Shown: in pieces, positions 3,915 through 58,304 of the stretch
How the letters are laid out: each line of letters begins with the position of its first letter
Numbering within the stretch: the stretch's first letter is position 1
Virus record (IMG/VR): IMGVR_UViG_3300037067_025869
Coordinates: 1-64,000 of that record
Strand: one strand, 5' to 3'
Length of the DNA: 64,000 nucleotides
DNA from: a virus
Lineage: Duplodnaviria > Caudoviricetes
Program-made: the position numbers and the translations under genes
The notes under the pieces: model-generated
What the model saw: only the letters and a program-made list of their open reading frames with translations
Database searches by the model: none
Told to the model about the DNA's origin: nothing

Positions 3915-4659
3915 ATTCTTCTTTTTTTATAGCTTTCGTAATACGATTCTTGTTTACCCACATTCTGCCATTCATTCCATTATTGTGATTATGATGCATT
4001 TTATATTTTTCCTGACCTATTTTTTCACCATATTTTTTTTCATACCAAATTAAAGAATATCTTCCTTTGGTCTTAGACCTCATCAATTCTTTGGTTTTTT
4101 CAGTATGATGTCTATTTAACCACAAAATCGAAAGTTTATCTTTTGCAGAATCAGATAAAGTTATACCCAAATGGCTTTCTTTCAATTCTTTTATATGTTC
4201 TTCTGAGAATTTAGGTCTTCCTCTAATCCATCCTTCTTTCAAATATTTTTCTATTTCATCTCTATAAACAGATTTTTGAATATTATCTTTAAAAATCCAG
4301 GTTCTTCTTGAAGCCTTTTCGCTTAAATTTTTCTTTATATTTGCTAGATTAGGATTAAAAGAAATTGAATTATATCCAGAAGAAACATTATATCCTTCTT
4401 CTATACTATTATATTTTTTTATCCACTCTATTTCTCGGCTTTCCAGCAAATTTTGAGAAACCAATTCAAGTATTTCTTTATCAAAATTATCTTCTCCAAA
4501 TTTCCTTATTGCTTGATGAAATTTATAATTAGATCCACTTTTGGCTGTTTGGATATGCTGTTTCCATCTTTTTTTAATATTATCACTCGATCCAATATAA
4601 ACTTTTCCATTTAATTTATTTTTCCAAATATAGATACCTACTAATTTTTCTTTTTTCAT
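3871..4659 (-). mobile_element. GIY-YIG homing endonuclease (NUMOD3-like) inserted in ligA
   Basis: GIYIWKNKLNGKVYIGSS, catalytic R (KRW) and E (ESRE), HTEKTKELM repeat. Confidence 0.9.
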
Positions 4660-29728: not shown

Positions 29729-29851
29729 TTAACCCCCACAGCATTTACGTTTTCTGGGTAGAATAAACCTGAAATTTTTTAAGAGAGGTTTTTGTCTTTC
29801 CGGCGGTTTTGGCCCTGGTTTTTTATGAAGTTTTGGCCCCAGTATTTTCAT
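29729..29851 (-). CDS. 40-aa basic, proline-rich peptide
   Basis: MKILGPKLHKKPGPKPPERQKPLLKNFRFILPRKRKCCGG; TAATG-coupled to the upstream ORF; not in the ORF track. Confidence 0.55.
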   Translation of the reverse strand: MKILGPKLHKKPGPKPPERQKPLLKNFRFILPRKRKCCGG

Positions 29852-30360
29852 TACTTGCTTTCTTTAAGTTCACAATTAATTTCATGCAATAATTCTTTAA
29901 TGTTTTTAACAAAAGATTCTTTAAATGTTTCGAAAATAACTTCAGAAGGGAGAACACCAGATAAATCCGAAGCTTTTACTTCGTTATATATTTCATCTAC
30001 CACATTGTATAATTTATATTTTAACTCACTTTGACGAAGGGTTTCACTAATAACAATGTTGGCTTTTTCTTTCAAAAAATTCTTTTTTTGATCTGCAGAA
30101 GAATGCTCATTAAGAGCACGTCCTCTCGTATTTAAAAACTTAATTCCCATTTCACTTATGCCTTCAGATTCGGACCAGTAGGAATTAAGTTCCAATAAAA
30201 ATATATTCTGAGCTTTTTCAGAAAGCTGTTTAAATTCTGGTATTCCATACTTTTCTAAGAGAGTATTATAAACCTTTGTAAACTGCCCAAGAACCTTACT
30301 TTCAACAAGATTATCTTCTTTAGTTTGCTTCTCCTTCAGTATAGTATTGAATTTTCTCAT
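29851..30360 (-). CDS. Hypothetical protein, putative internal protein
   Basis: MRKFNTILKE leader; LVES and LNE sites. Confidence 0.75.
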   Translation of the reverse strand: MRKFNTILKEKQTKEDNLVESKVLGQFTKVYNTLLEKYGIPEFKQLSEKAQNIFLLELNSYWSESEGISEMGIKFLNTRGRALNEHSSADQKKNFLKEKANIVISETLRQSELKYKLYNVVDEIYNEVKASDLSGVLPSEVIFETFKESFVKNIKELLHEINCELKESK

Positions 30361-30441: not shown

Positions 30442-31491
30442 ATGACTATTTTTAAATTTCGGCATAATATTCTCATATATTATAGTAAAAACCCAAATAA
30501 TATTTTAACTATGAAAAAACTAATATCAATTTTAATAGGGTTTCTCTTTTCTTATATATCTTTCTCTCAGATTGAGAGATCAACCCCCACCCAGCAGAGG
30601 TCTAATTATGAAATATATGTTATAAATAAGGATAAAGGTATTTCCCAAAATACTATAGATCCGCAAAAAAAGGAATGGGATGATCTATATTATATTCCTT
30701 CAAGAGATGAATTAAAACGTAAAGCAAAGAATATTAACCTTCGAAAAAAAGGGATAAGAATAGAACATGATTCTTTATATTACGATGCAAAAAAAGAAGT
30801 TTATGAGGATCTTTCTTTTACAGCACAGATTTATAGATTTCATCGTCCTTATTATGGATTTGGTTATTATAATTATTATTGGGATCCATTTTGCAATCTG
30901 ACGTTCTTAAAGTCATGGTATTATGGGTATTATCCTTATTGGGGATTTAGATTTGATTATAATAATTGGTATAGCTGGGGGTATACATATGATTCATATT
31001 ATCCAAATTGCTATTTTGGTAGAAATACTTATTACAGCCATTACTATAATTCCAAGATCCAATACGGAAGGCGAGAAAAGCCTTCAAATTTATCTTCTTC
31101 TTTTAATACAAATATTAAAAGACAACCTTCTAAAATTGATAGAACCCCGATCAGACCCTCTGCAATCCAAGAAAATAGAAGGGTTAATAATTTGCAAAAA
31201 ATAAATTCATCTAATGAAAGAAGAGTAACTACAAATCGATCTAACTATAATCCGGCGAGAAATAATCAAATACGAAGTTATACTCCAAATTACTCACAGC
31301 CTCACTCTCGTTCTCAGTATAACAATACGAATATAAATAGAAGTTATTCACCCGTAGAACATAGAAGTTATTCTACCCCTTCTGGGAATTATAACTCCGG
31401 GTCTTCTTATTCTGGGGGATCGAGCGGATCTAGATCAGGAGGGGCTTCAGGCAGATCAGGTTCTTCCAGAACTACATCACGAAGGAATTAG
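30442..31491 (+). CDS. Bacteroidota-like secreted Tyr/Trp/Gly-rich protein with Arg/Ser tail
   Basis: Likely start MKKLISILIGFLFSYISFSQ at 30511 (signal peptide); DDLYY, YYWDP, SRSGGASGRS tail. Confidence 0.7.
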   Translation: MTIFKFRHNILIYYSKNPNNILTMKKLISILIGFLFSYISFSQIERSTPTQQRSNYEIYVINKDKGISQNTIDPQKKEWDDLYYIPSRDELKRKAKNINLRKKGIRIEHDSLYYDAKKEVYEDLSFTAQIYRFHRPYYGFGYYNYYWDPFCNLTFLKSWYYGYYPYWGFRFDYNNWYSWGYTYDSYYPNCYFGRNTYYSHYYNSKIQYGRREKPSNLSSSFNTNIKRQPSKIDRTPIRPSAIQENRRVNNLQKINSSNERRVTTNRSNYNPARNNQIRSYTPNYSQPHSRSQYNNTNINRSYSPVEHRSYSTPSGNYNSGSSYSGGSSGSRSGGASGRSGSSRTTSRRN

Positions 31492-47879: not shown

Positions 47880-48440
47880 TTAAAGTCCTTCTGGGGTGTC
47901 TGTTCTTCTTTTAATTGTATATCTATTATATTTTATATTCATTGAAAAAGTATTAAATTCTGCTGCAGTTGTAGCATATGAAATTTCAAATTGGGATAAA
48001 CTCGTAGGAATAAGTTTTGTAAAGGTAAATTCCACTAATTCAAATCCATGATGATCTAAAAAGGAAACAAACATAGGGGGCCAAAAAGGAACTCTATCTG
48101 AGTATTCCACAAATTTTTCAATTTGCTCAAAGAGAATCCAATAAGAAATAAATCCCTCTGATAATTTAAAAGTAATACTTAAATTTTTATCTAAGACTGC
48201 TTCAAGCTCTTTTCCCCCTCGATAAGCAATTTTATATTGAGATTGCTGCTGCTCTGCTGTTGGAAGATCAACGGCAGGAAATGTGATATTTTGAACCGAA
48301 GCATTAATAAAATCCTCAACACTTTCGTAAGGGAGTTTTAGCCTTTTGATAATAGGAGTCCACCTGGTATGAATTTCTGGATAAAAGAAATTCTTAGGAA
48401 AAACTACGACGAATTGGTTAGACAAACTGTTAATTAGCAT
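47880..48440 (-). CDS. Tail-tube-fold (gp19-like) protein
   Basis: SVQNITFPAV, LSITFKL, FTFTKLIPTSLS, MNIKYNRY pattern. Confidence 0.55.
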   Translation of the reverse strand: MLINSLSNQFVVVFPKNFFYPEIHTRWTPIIKRLKLPYESVEDFINASVQNITFPAVDLPTAEQQQSQYKIAYRGGKELEAVLDKNLSITFKLSEGFISYWILFEQIEKFVEYSDRVPFWPPMFVSFLDHHGFELVEFTFTKLIPTSLSQFEISYATTAAEFNTFSMNIKYNRYTIKRRTDTPEGL

Positions 48441-48696: not shown

Positions 48697-49335
48697 ATGG
48701 CAGAACTTGAAATTAATAATGCAGAGGATCTTAAAAAAGAGCTTAAAAAAGCCGTTGAAAATAATCCAAATAAACCAACTGAGGAGGAGATTAAAGCTGC
48801 AGCAGCTGAATTCGAATCTGCTTCTAAAACTTTCCCTTCTAAATTATGGGAAATAGGCAAGGTTAAAGATGCTAGAACTTTTTGTGACTATCTCAAACAC
48901 TATGTAAGAAATAGATTATTTTGGACTAAAAATGGCTGGATGGGAGTCGTAAAATTAAACGAGGAGCTTCAAGCAGCTGAAAATCTATTAAATGGGAAAG
49001 AACCTCTTAAATTGGGATATCAAGCACTGGAGTTTGTTTATTATTCCTTAATGAATCCCGGAGGGATTGGTCTTCAAACAGCACAGGATTTTGAATCGGA
49101 AAGTGAAAATTATCTTCCTCTTATGGAATCGGTTTCTATCTCTCTAGAAAAAGCTAGAATTGAGCTTAAACAAATTCAATTCTTGCAAGATAAGTATGCA
49201 GCTATGCAGCAAGGTTTTTATCTTGAGCTTGAACCTACAGAAGGAGATCCTGCATCGGAGTTAGAAACACCCCTTAATTTAGACGAACCCATTGCTGTAG
49301 ATCCCGGGGATCTTGCTATTCATCCTGCTGAATAG
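48697..49335 (+). CDS. Hypothetical protein
   Basis: 212-aa ORF followed by a terminator. Confidence 0.8.
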   Translation: MAELEINNAEDLKKELKKAVENNPNKPTEEEIKAAAAEFESASKTFPSKLWEIGKVKDARTFCDYLKHYVRNRLFWTKNGWMGVVKLNEELQAAENLLNGKEPLKLGYQALEFVYYSLMNPGGIGLQTAQDFESESENYLPLMESVSISLEKARIELKQIQFLQDKYAAMQQGFYLELEPTEGDPASELETPLNLDEPIAVDPGDLAIHPAE

Positions 49336-49359
49336 TTACTTTTCCTTTAATAAAACTAT

Positions 49360-49383
49360 AAGGATCCTAAAACTAGGATCCTT
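49360..49383 (+). terminator. Hairpin, probable terminator
   Basis: AAGGATCCTA-AAAC-TAGGATCCTT. Confidence 0.6.
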
Positions 49384-49461
49384 TGTTCTGATATAAAGTA
49401 TAATAAAAAGTTTACATCTACTTTAAAATAAGAATATATAAAAATAAAATGATCAATTATT

Positions 49462-49818
49462 ATGACAACAACTCCAGATCAATTTTTCTCTAAAAACATG
49501 AAATGGATTACTTTAATCCTATTCTTTCTTCTTTTATTCAGTTCGGTAAGAAGCTGTAATAGGAAAATGCAATTAGATATAGGAACAAAACAATATATTG
49601 AACAAATAGATTCTTTAAAAACCCTTATCAATAAAACTAGACAAGAGGGCCAAGACAGCATCAAAAAGCTAAATTTTGAATTAAAATTTACTTCTGAACA
49701 AACAAGAGCTGCAAATGATCGAGCTCAAGCAGTTCAAAATGCTGTTGAAAAGATTAAAACAAATACCACTATTACAGTAAAGGGTGTGGAAGAAATAAAG
49801 GATGCATTTAAAAAATGA
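49462..49818 (+). CDS. Membrane-anchored coiled-coil protein (spanin-like)
   Basis: N-terminal TM, SVRSC, long coiled coil. Confidence 0.55.
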   Translation: MTTTPDQFFSKNMKWITLILFFLLLFSSVRSCNRKMQLDIGTKQYIEQIDSLKTLINKTRQEGQDSIKKLNFELKFTSEQTRAANDRAQAVQNAVEKIKTNTTITVKGVEEIKDAFKK

Positions 49819-50042
49819 AAAGCAAAGTTTATAAGCACATTACCATCTCTGAAGCAGATGAGACTCATAACGATAAACTTGTTTATATAGTAGTTAATAC
49901 TAAAAAGGGTGATCCGCTTGAATATATCTATTATGAGCCTAGCTGGAAACAATATGTTCTTACTACTATAAATGATATAATTTTTAGCGTATCCTGTTTA
50001 GAAAATATTATTGATTTTATCAAAAATGAAATTAAAAAGTAA
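49815..50042 (+). CDS. Hypothetical protein
   Basis: ATGA-coupled ORF. Confidence 0.7.
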   Translation: MKSKVYKHITISEADETHNDKLVYIVVNTKKGDPLEYIYYEPSWKQYVLTTINDIIFSVSCLENIIDFIKNEIKK

Positions 50043-50197
50043 TGGAATCAACAGTTAAAAAATCAGAAAAGGAAAGATGCATTCATTGTGGAGCAAAAAC
50101 CCCTTATTTTATAGATACCCCTGTTAATCTTAGAAATTACTATATTGATGGAGCAGGTCAATTATGCAAAAAATGTTTTGAAAAAATATATAATTAA
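50042..50197 (+). CDS. Small CxxC...CxxC zinc-finger protein (51 aa)
   Basis: ERCIHCGAKTPY...NYYIDGAGQLCKKC; TAATG-coupled; not in the ORF track. Confidence 0.75.
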   Translation: MESTVKKSEKERCIHCGAKTPYFIDTPVNLRNYYIDGAGQLCKKCFEKIYN

Positions 50198-51464
50198 AAA
50201 AATGAATTTTAAAAATTTTAAAATAACTAATAAAGGGTTATATTGGGGGTTGATTGCAACATTTGCAATTTTATATTTATGCGTTGGATTTGTAAGTACT
50301 TTACATAGCATAACTTTTTTTCATCTTGCTAATAGTTTAGGTCTTGCTATATTGCTTGGATTAACCTATGAATTAGGCCAAGCTAGTGTGCTATTCGGAC
50401 TTCTAATGACAAAAAACTCGAATAAATTTTTGCCATGGGCGTTAATGATTTTATTGACTGCTCTTCAAGTCACGGCAAACGTATATGCTTCATTTAAATT
50501 TATGGCCAATTCAGGAAGTAATGATTGGCAGTATTGGCAAAAATCTATATTGATTGGTGTTCAAGCAGCAAATCCCGAAATGTATCAAGTTATTATCTCT
50601 TGGATTGCCGGTGCTTTACTTCCTGTAGTTGCATTAGGTATGACAGCTTTAGTTGCTCAAAATATGAGATTTATTGCTGAAGAAGGGGAGGAAGAGGAAA
50701 AACCTAAAGATGTTGTAAAAGAATTTCTAAATCATGAATTTAAAAAATCTGAGGAAATTAAAGATGAAGAATCCAAACCTGTTGAAATGCCTTCAGTAGA
50801 AGAACAATTAGATAAATTTAAAAATAAACTTCTTTCGAATGCTAGTCCCCAAACTGAATTAGAAGAAAATTCAATTATAGGGGAAGGCGGTGTCGAAGTT
50901 ATTAAACCGGAATTTCAAACTTCCTTACAAGGTAAAAAATTCGTTGATGGCAAAGGAGTAGAATGGGAAGCTGGGGAACACCCCAAAGTAGATTTTCCCC
51001 CATTTAAATTTGTCCCCGAAAATATAGAAATGACAGCTGAAAATCCGGATGCAATTGTTGGAGATGAGATAAAAAGAAGAATTAAAGAATCTGCGGATAA
51101 GAAAAATCTCGAGGATCTGAAAAAGGATGTACAAGATGCTAAAGATTATCTGGATGAAGAAATAGAAAGACCTGTTCCCGAAATAAATCTTCCTAGAGAG
51201 ACAAAGCATGTTGAAGCAGAAGTAGCTCAAATTCCAACCTCTATTATAACTGAAATAGGAGAACCTGAAGTTGTTATCTCTAAGAAAACTCTAAAAGAAG
51301 CAGAAGATGCTACAAGAAGAGAACTTGGAGAAAAAATTCCATTTATTAAAACTAGGGGATGGCATTTGAAAAAGACTTATATCGATTCAAATGGTGATAT
51401 TTATCATTATGGCAAATTCTGCCCTCCAGAAAAGGAACAATCCAAGAAATCAAAAAAAGTTTAG
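50145..51464 (+). CDS. Multi-TM membrane protein with long acidic tail (short isoform)
   Basis: About four hydrophobic helices in the N-terminal third; likely start 50202. Confidence 0.8.
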   Translation: MMEQVNYAKNVLKKYIIKKMNFKNFKITNKGLYWGLIATFAILYLCVGFVSTLHSITFFHLANSLGLAILLGLTYELGQASVLFGLLMTKNSNKFLPWALMILLTALQVTANVYASFKFMANSGSNDWQYWQKSILIGVQAANPEMYQVIISWIAGALLPVVALGMTALVAQNMRFIAEEGEEEEKPKDVVKEFLNHEFKKSEEIKDEESKPVEMPSVEEQLDKFKNKLLSNASPQTELEENSIIGEGGVEVIKPEFQTSLQGKKFVDGKGVEWEAGEHPKVDFPPFKFVPENIEMTAENPDAIVGDEIKRRIKESADKKNLEDLKKDVQDAKDYLDEEIERPVPEINLPRETKHVEAEVAQIPTSIITEIGEPEVVISKKTLKEAEDATRRELGEKIPFIKTRGWHLKKTYIDSNGDIYHYGKFCPPEKEQSKKSKKV

Positions 51465-51507
51465 GAGCGAGCACTGGAAACAGGGGTAAAAATGAGCCCG
51501 CTCCTAA
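51452..51507 (+). promoter_or_regulatory. Candidate -1 ribosomal frameshift signal
   Basis: A AAA AAA (51452-51458) two codons before TAG; TTAGGAGCG/CGCTCCTAA 9-bp stem. Confidence 0.65.
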
Positions 51508-51757
51508 TAATCAAGAGATAAACCCTATTGAAGAACTTAACAAGCCTTCTCCGGGAAAAGAACTTATCGAAAGAATTAAAAAAGAAGATTCTGAAAGAAA
51601 AGCTAAGAAAGAAACCAAAATTGAAGAATATGTCCCATCTACAATTATTGATGGGGTTGAAATTATTGATGCAAAAGCAGTTCCTAAAGAAAAAAGAAAA
51701 ACCGATAAATTCGGAATCCCCGCATCTGAAACCAGATTAAATTGGGATAGGATCTAA
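51458..51757 (+). CDS. -1-frame C-terminal extension of the membrane protein (99 aa)
   Basis: SLGASTGNRGKNEPAP...TRLNWDRI; no ATG, GTG or TTG codon; composition matches the upstream tail. Confidence 0.7.
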   Translation, partial: SLGASTGNRGKNEPAPNNQEINPIEELNKPSPGKELIERIKKEDSERKAKKETKIEEYVPSTIIDGVEIIDAKAVPKEKRKTDKFGIPASETRLNWDRI

Positions 51758-51816
51758 CTATATTGAAATGCTTAAGACTCCTTGCTAGAACTTATAGGGA
51801 TACGCCTGTTAAGCTT

Positions 51817-51860
51817 AAATCCCCTAGACATATTAACCTATGTCTAGGGGATTTTCTTTT
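51817..51860 (+). terminator. Intrinsic terminator
   Basis: 16-bp perfect stem AAATCCCCTAGACATA/TATGTCTAGGGGATTT followed by TCTTTT. Confidence 0.85.
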
Positions 51861-51946
51861 TAAAAATGAATCTAATAAGTTTCTTCAAAAATTTATTCCC
51901 TCCGATTTAATCTTGAATAAATAGATAAAATAATAAGCTAATTATA

Positions 51947-53494
51947 ATGGCTACAACTGACGTATTCAATAACAGCAACAATAACTATGTAAATCCCGGT
52001 TTTTCCCCATGCGTAGGAACTGGGGATGATTCTTTTTTGGAATTTCTTCCAAATAAATCTATTGCAGTCATAAATGGAAGTAATACTCTTGCAGGGATTT
52101 CTTTTTCAGATATACAAATTCCGGTTTCAGCTTATAGTTCTCAGAAAAAAATTCTCGAACCAGGCGAAGTATCTTTTATCCCCGGATTATCAAAGGGATT
52201 AAATTATAGATCACAATATTTTACATTACCTGAATTTGATGAGGATCCTGGGGGTCTTCAGCCATATTATATGACTATTGATCTTTCCATTGCATTTTAT
52301 AAAAATTTCGGGTATAAAACTTATAATTTGTATGCTACAGCAGATGCTTCAAATAACGTCAATATAAATGAAGCTCTTGATATAGCTCTTTCAAATATTC
52401 AAGCAAAAATAACATCTGTTTATGATCCAAGCGATATGGGATTTATCGGAACTCAGTTAGGATGGGATTTTAATATATCCAATGTCAAATTAACCCTTAT
52501 TGATGCTTCGGAGAATTCGGACTCCCCATTTCCTTCTATTATCATAGACGGGGTAAATGTCCCTCAATCTTTTTCTTTAGAAGAGGATTTAGAAAAAATG
52601 ATTCTTTATGCTAAATATCCTAATTCAGCAATGCAGGGAATTATACTTAAAGCAACCTATCCAGAAACAGAATCAGATTATAATAAATGGTTTGAAATTA
52701 ATCACGTTCCGGATATAGTAGCAATTTATGAACCAATTGAAATAAATAATTTCATTAGTTCATTGGACCTTGCAATTAATTTTGATCCTTCTATTTATTT
52801 TGGACCTTTTATTACGGACTTTTCTGGCGCAACTTATGGGTTGGATGCAAGTAATGGTTCTGGATCATATATTGCTGGAGTTGTAGATTCATCTTTTGCA
52901 ACTTATAATCTTTCAAATTCATTAGTTTACAGCTCTAATTTAACGTTAAGCTCTACCCTGATGAACGGAATACTGGAAAAATCCTGGACAAATAAGGATT
53001 ATCCTTTGCTTCCATATGGGGATCCTTCTGCTAGAGTAGAAATTAATTTATCAACAATAAATGAATGTTCAATTTATAACACTTTTATTAGAGATACTTC
53101 GATATATAAATCTCTTTTAACCGATGTTTCTTTATCAAACTGTACACTTTATAATTGCTTTTATGATTCTAGCTTAATTGGATTAGAAAATTGTACGATT
53201 ATAAGAATAAATGAAAATATAGAACCATCAGCTGCCTATGATTCTTCAACTTATTATCGCCCAATTATTAAAACCATTGAGGTAGGTATGAGCGGCTGTT
53301 CAAATTCATCCCAAATGAGCGCGGGGGATTATCTTGAATGGATAACTACTAATGATGCTTGGGAAAAAGTCGGAGATATGTATATTCGAACATCTGCTCC
53401 GGATGCTGAAGATACAAGAAATTTAATCGACGGCTTCTATGCTTTTAATCCTCAGGTATTTTCAATTCAGCTTGAATATTTAATATTTGTATGA
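51947..53494 (+). CDS. Putative virion structural protein rich in D-x-S motifs
   Basis: Late-type motif upstream; Ser/Asn/Ile-rich, beta-structure-like sequence. Confidence 0.65.
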   Translation: MATTDVFNNSNNNYVNPGFSPCVGTGDDSFLEFLPNKSIAVINGSNTLAGISFSDIQIPVSAYSSQKKILEPGEVSFIPGLSKGLNYRSQYFTLPEFDEDPGGLQPYYMTIDLSIAFYKNFGYKTYNLYATADASNNVNINEALDIALSNIQAKITSVYDPSDMGFIGTQLGWDFNISNVKLTLIDASENSDSPFPSIIIDGVNVPQSFSLEEDLEKMILYAKYPNSAMQGIILKATYPETESDYNKWFEINHVPDIVAIYEPIEINNFISSLDLAINFDPSIYFGPFITDFSGATYGLDASNGSGSYIAGVVDSSFATYNLSNSLVYSSNLTLSSTLMNGILEKSWTNKDYPLLPYGDPSARVEINLSTINECSIYNTFIRDTSIYKSLLTDVSLSNCTLYNCFYDSSLIGLENCTIIRINENIEPSAAYDSSTYYRPIIKTIEVGMSGCSNSSQMSAGDYLEWITTNDAWEKVGDMYIRTSAPDAEDTRNLIDGFYAFNPQVFSIQLEYLIFV

Positions 53495-53522
53495 GAACCA
53501 TATAATTAATGATAAATAAAAT

Positions 53523-54023
53523 ATGAAAGCAAAGACTATACAAGAAGCACTTAATGAATTTGGGGGAGCAGGTTATGCAGTATACGGCGGCGCTGCTAAT
53601 TATGGCAATCCCGGACGAGGAATTGGTTTTGGCCAAAGCTCCCAGAATAAAGGAGGTCCAAATTTAATGTACACCTATGATGTTAAGGATTTAAATCAAG
53701 CATTGCAACCCCCTCCAACTACTCAAGGAGAAGAAAAATACATACATATTGGTTCTCATGTTAAAGCTAAATCATTGGAATCAGAAAAATGGGTAGAAGG
53801 AAATATACTTTCTACTAAATTTGATGCGGATGGAAATATCCTTCATTATGAGGTTTTAAATCCTGCATCAGGACAATCTGAAAAAGTAGATCCTACCTCA
53901 ATTGAACTTATTGAAAATGATCTGCTTCCCGGGTTAGCAACTTTAGATAGAGATATCGTGGGAGAATCTCTTTTTGTCTCCGAATCCATAGAGCAATTAT
54001 ATGAAAATAAAAAAAGAGGCTAA
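53523..54023 (+). CDS. Putative internal protein
   Basis: MKAKTIQEALNEFGG leader; SH3-like middle. Confidence 0.7.
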   Translation: MKAKTIQEALNEFGGAGYAVYGGAANYGNPGRGIGFGQSSQNKGGPNLMYTYDVKDLNQALQPPPTTQGEEKYIHIGSHVKAKSLESEKWVEGNILSTKFDADGNILHYEVLNPASGQSEKVDPTSIELIENDLLPGLATLDRDIVGESLFVSESIEQLYENKKRG

Positions 54024-55943: not shown

Positions 55944-58304
55944 TTAATCAAAACTTAAAACTCCTTTTCCTGGGGATGACGGGCTAAATTCAAATTTAAC
56001 TTGGCCTTTTTTCATAGCATCTAATAATTGGGAACCAACAGCAACTCCTATTTGAGCAGAGATTACATCCCAATTTGTTGTTGGAATAGAGGATTCATTG
56101 ACAACTTTGGAGGTTGTTTGAATTTTTTCAGCAGTAGTTCCTCTCGTAGTTCCATCGGAAATTCCGCTAGTTACCCCAGCACTCACAGAAATAGCAGCAA
56201 GTTTTGAAAGTTTTGCCGTATCAAATCCATCGAGACTTACAGAAAGATCATTGAGAGATTTAGCTAAATTTGAAATGGTATCATTAGTTTTTTCTAAAGC
56301 TGATAATGATTCTGAAAATTTAGAAAGTTCTTCTATAACCCCGCTATATTTTTGGATGGCTTTTTTAGCATCTTTTGCACTAGATTTTTCTAATTTTGTT
56401 GCGAGAGTATCCGAAAAAGTTGTAAGAGCGGAAACAATATTTTGAGCAATAATGCCCATCGAAAGTATTTTGGGTTTTCCGTTTTCCATTACAGGTTTAC
56501 CCTCTGCATCCAGAATCGGAATTTCATTATTAGGGCCAAATTCAGCAAACATTTTTAAAGTATCGGCGAATTGCATAACTGCTCCAAGAATACCATTTCT
56601 TCCAACAAGAGCTTTAGACATTCTTTTCATTCTTCTTTTTTGCTTACCCGAAATTCCCTTCCCCTCAGGCTCACCATCCCCAAACTCGCTTTCTGATTTC
56701 GAAAATAGTTGTTCTGTAAAATATAAGAAACTACTAATCATATTTTTAACAACAGTCTTGGCTGCAACCTTTTTCCTTATCTCGTTTCCTTTATCGTCAT
56801 AATCAATATATCCTATTTCATTTTTTTCCCCAAATTCGGCATATATTTTCATCGCATCTGCAAATTGAATAACTGCCGAAAGAATACCTCTTCTTCCGGT
56901 AAGCGCTCTACCCATTTTTCGAATGGCAATAGCTTTTTGCTTTGTAAGTCCTTCTGTAGATTCAAGAAGAGCAGTTAAAAAAGTACTAATTGAATAAGAT
57001 ATGTTATCGGCAACTTTTGATAAATTAACTTTTTCGCCGAATATTGGCTTTCCGTTCTTATCATATCCTTCAATAATTCTCATACTATTTAGTTCGGCAA
57101 AAGCAGATACCGCTCTTGCAAACATCGAAAGTGCAACAGACATTGCCATTAATACCACTATTCCAGCAAATATCTTAGCACTATTTTTTATAAATTCCCC
57201 AATACCTGCGAATCCTTTCTTCCCCCCGGAAAGAACTGAAATACCGTCAATCATGCCGCCAAGAACCCCTCCGATTAAATGCCCGAGCGTTTCCCTAATA
57301 TCTACATCTTTTAATTCATTCGAAATGCCAACAATTTTTTTAATCATTACTGCAAGTAAAAAGAAAGTTCCTCCAAGCATTAAAATAGTCAAAGCACCAA
57401 GAGCTACTTCAACAATCATAGTTCCTAATAAAGCAAATATAAGAGCAGATCCAACGATAACTCCTCCGATAACTAGCATAGATTTTAATAATCCCCCGCC
57501 GGTTTCCTTCCCCAATATTTTAGGAATTAAACTAACTGCTAAAGCAAAAGAAACTAATCCAAGTGCCAATGCAGCCATCCCGATACCCATTTCAACAAGG
57601 GTGGAGCTTCCTTTTTTAATGAACTTATTAGCTAAAGCAAGAGCTCCAAATACTACTAATAATCCTAATATAGCAACCCCAAGGAAAATAAAAACATCTT
57701 TTGGGCTAGCTAATTTCATGATCATTGCAGTTAATAGTAATGACCCGGCAAAGGCAAGTATTCCTATACCTAAATATGCAAAGCTAAGAGAAATATCTTT
57801 AATTGGTTTAGCTATTTTTTGAAGAGATTTAGCTATCTTATCAAATGTTTTAACAGCTTTATCTACTTTTCTAGTACTTGAAGCATCCCCTTTTTCCTCC
57901 ATAAAATTATAAAGAGATTCTAAAGTAGTAAGAGCCATATGAACTTGTCTCTGCTTGATCCTACCTAAAGCATCTAACCCTGTAGCTAATCCAGGCAGAC
58001 CTTGACCTAAAAGATTTAACGATTCTGCTAGATTTTTTAAACCTTTTGCCCCCTTCTGACTTTTGGCGCCAATAGCTACAAATTGCTCAATAAAAGTAAA
58101 AAAATCTTTTATTGTTTTGGGCTTAACCCTGCCAAATGATAATAGAGAAGGTCCTAAATTAGATAGTACTGAAATTTTATTTTTTATTTGCGATCCTACT
58201 TCTTGAGGAGCAGGACCACCTGACCCTTTAGCAGATCGGGTATTCTCCTCAATTTTTCCGAGGGTTTTTAAAATACCATATAAAAGTTCATTAGCTTGAA
58301 GCAT
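55944..58304 (-). CDS. Tape-measure-like protein
   Basis: 786 aa, Ala/Leu/Gly-rich helical with a central hydrophobic block and internal repeats; downstream of tube and gp26-like genes. Confidence 0.65.
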   Translation of the reverse strand: MLQANELLYGILKTLGKIEENTRSAKGSGGPAPQEVGSQIKNKISVLSNLGPSLLSFGRVKPKTIKDFFTFIEQFVAIGAKSQKGAKGLKNLAESLNLLGQGLPGLATGLDALGRIKQRQVHMALTTLESLYNFMEEKGDASSTRKVDKAVKTFDKIAKSLQKIAKPIKDISLSFAYLGIGILAFAGSLLLTAMIMKLASPKDVFIFLGVAILGLLVVFGALALANKFIKKGSSTLVEMGIGMAALALGLVSFALAVSLIPKILGKETGGGLLKSMLVIGGVIVGSALIFALLGTMIVEVALGALTILMLGGTFFLLAVMIKKIVGISNELKDVDIRETLGHLIGGVLGGMIDGISVLSGGKKGFAGIGEFIKNSAKIFAGIVVLMAMSVALSMFARAVSAFAELNSMRIIEGYDKNGKPIFGEKVNLSKVADNISYSISTFLTALLESTEGLTKQKAIAIRKMGRALTGRRGILSAVIQFADAMKIYAEFGEKNEIGYIDYDDKGNEIRKKVAAKTVVKNMISSFLYFTEQLFSKSESEFGDGEPEGKGISGKQKRRMKRMSKALVGRNGILGAVMQFADTLKMFAEFGPNNEIPILDAEGKPVMENGKPKILSMGIIAQNIVSALTTFSDTLATKLEKSSAKDAKKAIQKYSGVIEELSKFSESLSALEKTNDTISNLAKSLNDLSVSLDGFDTAKLSKLAAISVSAGVTSGISDGTTRGTTAEKIQTTSKVVNESSIPTTNWDVISAQIGVAVGSQLLDAMKKGQVKFEFSPSSPGKGVLSFD

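Follow-up and report, generated by a model that had tools for sequence, protein, structure and literature searches.

A putative programmed −1 frameshift in a family of phage membrane proteins

A 64,000-nucleotide (nt) stretch of a tailed-phage genome (Duplodnaviria; Caudoviricetes; positions 1 to 64,000 of IMG/VR record IMGVR_UViG_3300037067_025869, hereafter the window) carries a gene for a four-helix membrane protein that appears to be made in two lengths. Its 420-codon reading frame closes just after a run of seven A residues, and a frame in the −1 register, open for a further 99 codons, seems to continue the same protein. We consider a programmed −1 ribosomal frameshift of the dnaX/IS type, giving products of 420 and 518 amino acids (aa), to be the most probable reading of this arrangement, with a probability of about 0.78. 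A first-pass annotation, made from the sequence of the window alone, had proposed this mechanism and gave the two product sizes correctly; a conserved A7 run and spacer, a covarying stem, a −1 frame with the marks of coding sequence, and an extension resembling the C-terminus of relatives encoded by one continuous open reading frame (ORF) all now speak for it. That the slippage is ribosomal rather than transcriptional, how efficient it may be and what purpose it may serve are matters that we infer from these comparisons.

The slip site, the hairpin and the −1 frame

The elements of the candidate cassette all lie on the + strand.

50202-51464, + strand: 0-frame ORF of the short isoform (P0001), 420 aa, defined by translation and homologs
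51452-51458, + strand: slippery heptamer A_AAA_AAA, in phase, with Lys418-Lys419 in the A and P sites
51459-51463, + strand: 5-nt spacer between A7 and the conserved stem core
51462-51506, + strand: putative stimulatory hairpin, 5' arm 51462-51472 and 3' arm 51496-51506, with core 51464-51470 pairing with 51498-51504
51458-51757, + strand: −1 frame extension of 99 codons and a stop, predicted to yield the 518-aa long isoform; no start codon, apparently coding, and similar to in-frame C-termini of relatives
51817-51864, + strand: predicted intrinsic terminator, a 16-bp stem and T-run, closing the operon after the −1 ORF

In translation the 420-aa ORF ends Ser-Lys-Lys-Val-stop. The A7 run, in phase before the stop as the first-pass annotation had described it, supplies the last base of the Ser codon and both Lys codons, in the X_XXY_YYZ phase with the 0 frame, and the TAG stop at 51462-51464 follows one codon after the heptamer. 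The −1 frame is open from 51398 to its stop at 51755-51757, of which 99 codons lie past the slip, and it contains no ATG, GTG or TTG anywhere; the +1 frame closes after 8 codons. The composition of the extension matches that of the gene, with an AT skew of about +0.3 to +0.4 that persists across it and drops past 51750, and the sole + strand terminator-like site between 48300 and 52100 lies at 51817-51854, beyond the −1 ORF. On these points, too, the first reading of the window was accurate. By our own estimate from base composition, the chance of a 98-codon open frame is about 4e-4. The A7 run taken alone is uninformative, because the window, at 32% GC, holds about 95 runs of A7/T7 or longer: the run is no more than chance would supply, whereas the combination of features is more than chance. 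The case for a frameshift rests on this combination and on the comparison of sequences with those of relatives.

Relatives of the 0-frame protein number more than 313 in a collection of 5.8 billion proteins, where their source name is nothing beyond 'hypothetical protein', and an exhaustive search of a representative library resolves the family into 601 clusters at 50% identity. The database proteins of close relatives all end at TAG. Alignment A1 comprises 23 full-length relatives with identities as low as 47%; every one of them carries the Lys-Lys-Ala/Val end, and both lysines are invariant. Two of the 23 have no immediate stop, and their 0 frame continues for a Lys-rich stretch of about 52 residues to which nothing in any other relative can be aligned. 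We then fetched 127 homologous loci (46 on viral contigs, 80 on metagenome contigs and 1 on a contig of a mis-binned 'archaeal' metagenome-assembled genome) and walked their genes by script. The layout of the window, which we call site 1, occurs in 52 loci from many samples, amounting to 34 distinct sequences that keep exactly the A7, the 5-nt spacer and the hairpin; in all 34 the run is flanked by a pyrimidine and a G. TAG lies 3 nt past A7 in 47 of these loci and 9 nt past it in the other 5, the −1 frame stays open for 89-138 codons, and the frame relation is uniformly −1. At each of the 46 loci on viral contigs a stop closes the +1 frame in no more than 21 codons. In one relative (L013) TAG has become a sense codon without loss of the A7, the stem or the conserved −1 ORF; the 0 frame there extends for about 52 Lys-rich codons (L013:5221-5390), again aligning with no other relative.

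The stem downstream of the run is supported by folding and by covariation. In a ViennaRNA fold of the window the outer helix joins 51461/2-51468 to 51500-51506/7 in 8-9 pairs, and the 69-nt stretch has a minimum free energy of −19.1 kcal/mol (z −3.1), which 1 of 200 dinucleotide shuffles equals. We take the spacer as 5 nt because the conserved core starts at 51464, which is where the first-pass annotation had placed it. When the 34 distinct site-1 regions are aligned with MAFFT (A2), the invariant positions are the A7, the next G and an AGG at the foot of the stem. Run unaided on A2, RNAalifold recovers a 7-pair helix starting from the G of TAG, and 5 of the 7 pairs show compensatory changes on both sides; conservation of the run and covariation of the stem, which the first-pass annotation had proposed to look for, are thus both found. 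When the stem is counted as 11 pairs, pairing holds in 84.3% of cells; moving the 3' arm by 1-3 columns lowers this to 33.6-48.5%, and the covariation score falls from 0.501 to no more than 0.175 in these slid controls. At least 10 different arm sequences occur, every one complementary to its partner arm. Folded individually, all 34 sequences form the same outer hairpin (median −14.7 kcal/mol), with the first paired base mostly the sixth after A7. Both arms lie within the coding sequence of the −1 frame, and the residues they encode change in step with the arms; the RNA pairing therefore constrains the protein there. The small inner hairpin that the first-pass annotation saw enclosed by this stem is present in the fold of the window, but the loops differ among relatives, most of whose folds have no inner helix at that place, and it is specific to the window.

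Whether the hairpin could be extended into a pseudoknot is a hypothesis suggested by one further pair of tracts.

51483-51525, + strand: possible pseudoknot partners (hypothesis), a loop G-run at 51483-51486 and a C-run at 51523-51525

The loop G-run and a C-run 11-20 nt past the stem occur together in 19 of the 34 distinct sequences, and the two runs hardly vary among sequences although the residues they encode differ; it is possible that they form a pseudoknot helix of 3-4 bp. In L013 the loop and downstream runs are both altered (GAGG with TCCT), and pairing would be kept only after a one-base register shift.

Searches with RNA models match the cassette to no Rfam family. An Rfam cmscan of 51350-51900, with E up to 10, returned no match to a frameshift-element family, including the DnaX element; the best matches all fall on the terminator region, 51736-51865, below the gathering score. 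A covariance model built from the cassette and run over the window has a single real match, its own site, at 71.5 bits. The next matches, 29795-29880 on the − strand and 30650-30728 on the + strand, score 25.6 and 23.6 bits (rough E 0.03-0.07); neither has an A7 plus stem at an ORF end, and we regard both as chance.

The −1 frame bears the marks of coding sequence. Among 12 close relatives, substitutions at its codon positions 1, 2 and 3 number 1469, 1121 and 2716, and the share of differing codons that are synonymous is 39% when they are read in this frame, compared with 13% and 11% for the remaining frames. Judged by these patterns, the −1 frame is under coding (purifying) selection. Conservation of its amino acids reaches back to the slip site, with Lys-Lys-Ser-Leu/Ile-Gly. 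The one-ORF relatives align with the extension over their C-terminal ~110 residues, sharing with it three motifs (M3, M4 and M5, described below) and the same final residue (alignment A6), and a BLASTP comparison of the window extension with a one-ORF relative gives E 3e-11 and 40% identity, reaching both C-termini. On this similarity, the extension and the C-terminus that the one-ORF relatives encode in frame are homologous.

Ribosomal frameshifting and its alternatives

The in-phase all-A heptamer, the 5-nt spacer and the covarying stem-loop make this a canonical bacterial −1 signal. In such signals the stimulatory structure begins some 5-9 nt past the heptamer, a range that includes the spacer here. 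If it operates as such, most ribosomes would read Lys418-Lys419-Val-stop and release the 420-aa protein. A fraction would pause with two Lys tRNAs on A_AAA_AAA and with the hairpin, 5 nt downstream, at the mRNA entrance; both tRNAs could then re-pair one base back, perfectly (AAA to AAA), and the −1 frame would be translated for 99 codons to give a 518-aa protein bearing M3, M4 and the C-terminal M5.

Several points weigh against this account. A large 2016 review describes A_AAA_AAA as far less shift-prone in E. coli than A_AAA_AAG (PMC5009743); efficiency here may accordingly be low or host-dependent. The 34-sequence alignment A2 shows no conserved upstream Shine-Dalgarno-like element, and an A7 run can also support some polymerase slippage. 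Shared ancestry among the relatives means that our shuffle control, in which 0 of 500 shuffles reach the observed pairing or covariation value of the 11-pair stem, overstates significance; the sounder evidence for the stem is the slid control and the number of distinct stems. Finally, no family, fold or partner that would explain two isoforms emerged from Pfam, PHROG, NCBIfam, PADLOC or structure searches.

The main rival is transcriptional slippage, in which the polymerase would add one non-templated A and the resulting A8 mRNAs would encode the 518-aa protein, leaving the hairpin some other role. Homopolymeric A runs are a substrate for polymerase slippage (PMC1088944), both mechanisms may operate at one site, as the 2016 review has it (PMC5009743), and the same family has an A9 run, site 2, whose varying frame relation is what slippage predicts. 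At site 1, however, the run is exactly 7 in all 34 sequences; bacterial selection against slippage is typically seen from about 9 (PMC1088944), and by that threshold the run is shorter than efficient polymerase slippage needs, low-level slippage being possible. Since A9 is used elsewhere in the family, the short run here looks deliberate, and the frame relation at site 1 is uniformly −1. A covarying hairpin 5 nt downstream is, moreover, a canonical ribosomal stimulator, and we know of no role for a downstream hairpin in polymerase slippage. Because the run is held at 7, the hairpin has no known slippage role and the frame relation is uniform, we rate slippage lower, as an improbable but serious contender.

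A further possibility is that a genuine cassette yields the long form in negligible amounts, as a by-product, and that the hairpin is retained for some other reason, for example mRNA stability or processing of the short-ORF end. The modest shifting of A_AAA_AAA in E. coli, as given in the review already cited (PMC5009743), would suit such an explanation; strong coding selection on 99 codons reachable by recoding alone, and a C-terminal motif conserved family-wide, make it distinctly improbable.

Independent translation of the downstream frame, by non-canonical initiation or by termination-reinitiation after TAG, would make the locus two separate genes, as gene callers indeed split it, with the database proteins of close relatives all stopping there. 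We give this very little weight: the −1 ORF offers none of the three usual start codons, its conservation begins right at the slip site instead of at some later point of initiation, the extension corresponds to the C-terminus of the one-ORF relatives, and a profile search with the extension alignment, which covered longer proteins alone and did not search extension-length proteins, matched only one-ORF family members.

Hardly credible, lastly, is an artefact or decay, whether a one-base assembly or sequencing deletion in a 518-aa gene or a recent pseudogene. Homopolymers are error-prone and some relatives do have one continuous ORF, but the same A7 split recurs in 52 loci from many independent samples and assemblies, with flanks below 50% protein identity, and the −1 frame is under apparent purifying selection. 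The first-pass annotation had warned that a continuous ORF in homologs would point to an assembly deletion; this does not apply, as the one-ORF relatives are without the A7 site and have a different tail, and all the closest relatives are split. Conservation, covariation, coding selection, the homology of the extension and the layout of L013 lead us to exclude assembly error, pseudogene and a free-standing downstream gene. Reassignment of the TAG codon was also rejected: TAG ends 7 of 49 long ORFs, the window has no tRNAs, and translation past the TAG would meet another stop 20 codons on and not reach the conserved end.

Protein architecture and a second recoding site

The short form consists of a four-helix membrane anchor, an acidic disordered linker and a motif, M2, close to its end; the extension would add three more motifs.

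50229-50684, + strand: N-terminal membrane domain of four helices, spanning roughly residues 10-161, where conservation in the family is highest (AlphaFold2 (AF2) model, A1)
51354-51416, + strand: M2, Arg-Gly-Trp-His ... Phe-Gly-Lys, near the short-form end (A1)
51527-51583, + strand: M3, a Lys-Pro-Ser-x-Gly-x-Glu-Leu-Ile helix in the extension, conserved in A6
51644-51688, + strand: M4, Asp-Gly-Val-Glu-Val/Ile ... Ala-Ile/Val-Pro-Lys, in the extension (A6)
51704-51754, + strand: M5, Asp-Lys-Phe-Gly-Ile-Pro ... Trp/Phe-Asp-Arg/Lys-Ile, at the extreme C-terminus (A6)

The first-pass annotation had called this a multi-transmembrane (TM) protein, and AF2 models four membrane helices at residues 10-42, 46-71, 76-104 and 125-161, followed by a tail of mostly low confidence (mean predicted local distance difference test score, pLDDT, 46 for the window protein and 62 for a natural one-ORF relative). 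Most of the invariant A1 columns fall in this N-terminal domain, and the positive-inside rule suggests an N-in/C-in topology with both ends cytoplasmic. Within M2 the residues G386, W387, H388, K391, D395 and G404 are invariant in A1; of 39 distinct site-1 proteins, 25 have the motif, at a distance of 13-28 aa from the end of the ORF. In the AF2 model of the one-ORF relative, M3 is the one stretch of the tail predicted with confidence, as a helix over residues 291-310 with pLDDT 71-85. In A6, G68, V69, E70, V71, D73 and K75 of M4 are invariant or nearly so, and G88, I89, P90 and D99 of M5 are invariant. Of the 107 loci in which no contig end interrupts the gene, 93 share the M5 end, irrespective of recoding layout.

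Those layouts extend beyond site 1. In 30 loci there is a site 2 only, an A9 run further downstream, directly past M4; 9 loci have both sites in series; 15 have one continuous ORF with the same C-terminal motif; and the remaining loci comprise 10 odd cases and 21 in which the gene runs off the contig. Runs at site 2 range from A9 to A11 with no downstream stem evident by eye, and past the run the −1 frame spans about 17-27 codons and carries the family C-terminal motif (for example L065:2500-2610; also L006, L016, L034, L072-L074, L082, L085, L094, L097, L108 and L119). The window has no long run at the corresponding position. Series arrangements, seen in L075:957-1400 (= L015), L022, L105 (= L033), L102, L111, L115 and L116, would allow up to three nested isoforms.

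Most loci continue past site 2 in the −1 frame, whereas L079 (= L017) near 3918 (A9) and L005 near 5304 (A10) do so in the +1 frame, and several one-ORF relatives have an A9 or A11 in frame (gene ends of L067, L077, L059, L069 and L071). Such variation in frame fits transcriptional slippage or a hypervariable tract better than a ribosomal −1 site. In a tree of the N-terminal domain, whose branch support was not assessed, the site states are interspersed. Taken together, these layouts allow a tentative proposal, which we would place somewhat short of even odds, that the family is a two-switch system: a hairpin-stimulated (possibly pseudoknot-stimulated) ribosomal −1 site and an A9 polymerase-slippage site, used singly, serially or not at all, would yield a nested set of at most three isoforms, bearing one, two or three C-terminal motif sets and made in fixed ratios, and evolution would toggle which form is the default.

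Why make one membrane protein in two lengths? Database searches offer little guidance. Scans of Pfam, PHROGs, NCBIfam and PADLOC with both parts of the gene, 65 family members and the neighbours returned no meaningful family, and no family member was found within PHROGs; an ESM Atlas search yielded viral hypotheticals alone, Foldseek comparison of the AF2 models with BFVD and PDB was uninformative, and profile searches of PDB with the family found nothing. We speculate, knowing that this is rather unlikely to be right in full, that the protein is a membrane-anchored scaffold with a largely disordered cytoplasmic tail whose motifs recruit partners, the frameshift fixing the ratio of forms with and without the distal motifs. 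In any such arrangement the C-terminal motifs would stand out as the functionally titrated part of an abundant, uncharacterised phage membrane protein.

Tails outside the site-1 group differ in content. An AT-hook-like Arg-Gly-Arg-Pro element occurs in the tail of 15 of 40 distinct non-site-1 proteins (for example L067, L059, L069, L077 and L027), against none of 39 site-1 proteins, and is accompanied in the cytoplasmic tail by a basic stretch, which hints at DNA binding by these tails. The GenBank phage collection holds one distant relative, a 306-aa protein at L129:2974-3894 (LR756500.1, a 462-kb uncultured phage), which is 33% identical across the four-TM domain, has a tail that is charged and coiled-coil-like, and shows no recoding signal.

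Known recoding systems and genomic context

The mechanism itself is textbook, and the closest parallels come from bacteria and their mobile elements. The E. coli dnaX gene makes tau and gamma through a −1 frameshift at A_AAA_AAG, with a 3' stem-loop and an upstream Shine-Dalgarno-like element. The window gene resembles it in having an all-A/Lys heptamer, a short spacer and a stable stem-loop, and in that its products would differ in distal interaction modules; unlike dnaX, its heptamer ends in A and not G, it has no conserved upstream Shine-Dalgarno-like element or Rfam frameshift-element match, it encodes an unrelated membrane protein, and the shift would lengthen that protein by 99 residues where the dnaX shift ends it early. 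With the OrfA/OrfAB genes of IS3, IS911 and IS1 it shares the heptamer class, a 0-frame stop soon past the slip and a startless −1 frame that would be read into a fusion, and a cluster of IS elements with A_AAA_AAA is described as a proven case of stem-loop-stimulated −1 frameshifting (PMC4066793). It differs from the IS transposases in being a phage membrane protein with no mobile element, and in an extension made of short motifs instead of a catalytic domain.

Among phage genes the nearest comparison is the lambda gpG/gpGT tail chaperone, likewise a late-region gene with a minority −1 shift near the ORF end and a C-terminal extension conserved in many phages, and by analogy the likely shared purpose would be a fixed ratio of two forms. 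The lambda heptamer, however, is G_GGA_AAG, and lambda needs no stimulatory structure, according to the 2016 review (PMC5009743). The window gene does not lie between tube and tape measure on their strand: both the tube (47880-48440) and the tape measure (55944-58304) are on the opposite strand. It encodes four TM helices and has no Pfam or PHROG match of any kind, to tail chaperones or otherwise; chaperone genes of this type lie between tube and tape measure, and their extension binds the tail tube. For site 2 the counterparts are Thermus thermophilus dnaX (A9) and Shigella mxiE (T9), which are transcriptional slippage sites; the family's A9 tract resembles them, the distal motif being joined or lost there, whereas the window's own site is an A7 with a hairpin.

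Most known cases of programmed frameshifting in tailed phages concern tail chaperones and capsid genes, with a few in enzymes. A membrane-protein class of frameshift is absent from the part of the 2016 review available to us (PMC5009743), and the PRFect paper never mentions membranes (PMC10885494). We have found no description in the literature of the gene family, of its strong natural series of covarying stems or of its mosaic of two different recoding sites within a gene. A large uncharacterised family carries an unusually well-supported frameshift cassette, whose natural stem variants are a ready-made mutational series for hairpin-stimulated frameshifting, and the joint presence of ribosomal-type and slippage-type sites parallels the dnaX story, here within a single protein. 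There is also a practical consequence, in that gene callers split or truncate such genes and annotation pipelines miss the long isoform.

The window belongs to a 74.8-kb IMG/VR record that CheckV rates 18% complete, and its genes include those for a ribonucleotide reductase, a DNA polymerase, a helicase and a tail-tube protein. Several homolog contigs measure 137-405 kb, and, with the low completeness of a record already 74.8 kb long, this puts some members of the family, at the least, in giant phages. The frameshift gene is the last of a five-gene + strand operon (48697-51757) and sits in a module (48697-54023) conserved in about 100 loci, whose members are an acidic helical 212-aa protein, a 118-aa protein with a TM segment and coiled coil, the frameshift gene, a 515-aa protein with weak pentapeptide/beta-helix-like repeats, and a 166-aa protein. 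Library scans matched no module member to a known family. Profile searches of PDB with two of the syntenic neighbours gave a weak pentapeptide/beta-helix-like signal in the 515-aa protein and otherwise nothing, and NCBIfam rows for the 118-aa neighbour were discarded as far below cut-off and confined to residues 16-59, its N-terminal hydrophobic stretch.

The first-pass annotation had further suggested that the frameshift might tune lysis or exclusion, partly because of a 'spanin-like' gene upstream. This finds no support here. The spanin-like label comes down to a match to PHROG 214 (Rz-like) at E 0.006 alone, no lipobox was seen in a 75-aa ORF, and no recognisable lysis cassette was found around the gene. 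In Pfam, PHROG, NCBIfam and PADLOC the protein matched no holin, spanin, endolysin or defence family; the neighbours scanned gave no informative match, and no module gene matched a holin, endolysin or defence family. Directly upstream of the frameshift gene, at 50042-50197, lies a 51-aa ORF with two Cys-x-x-Cys pairs, zinc-ribbon-like in appearance, which is kept in just 5 of the fetched loci.

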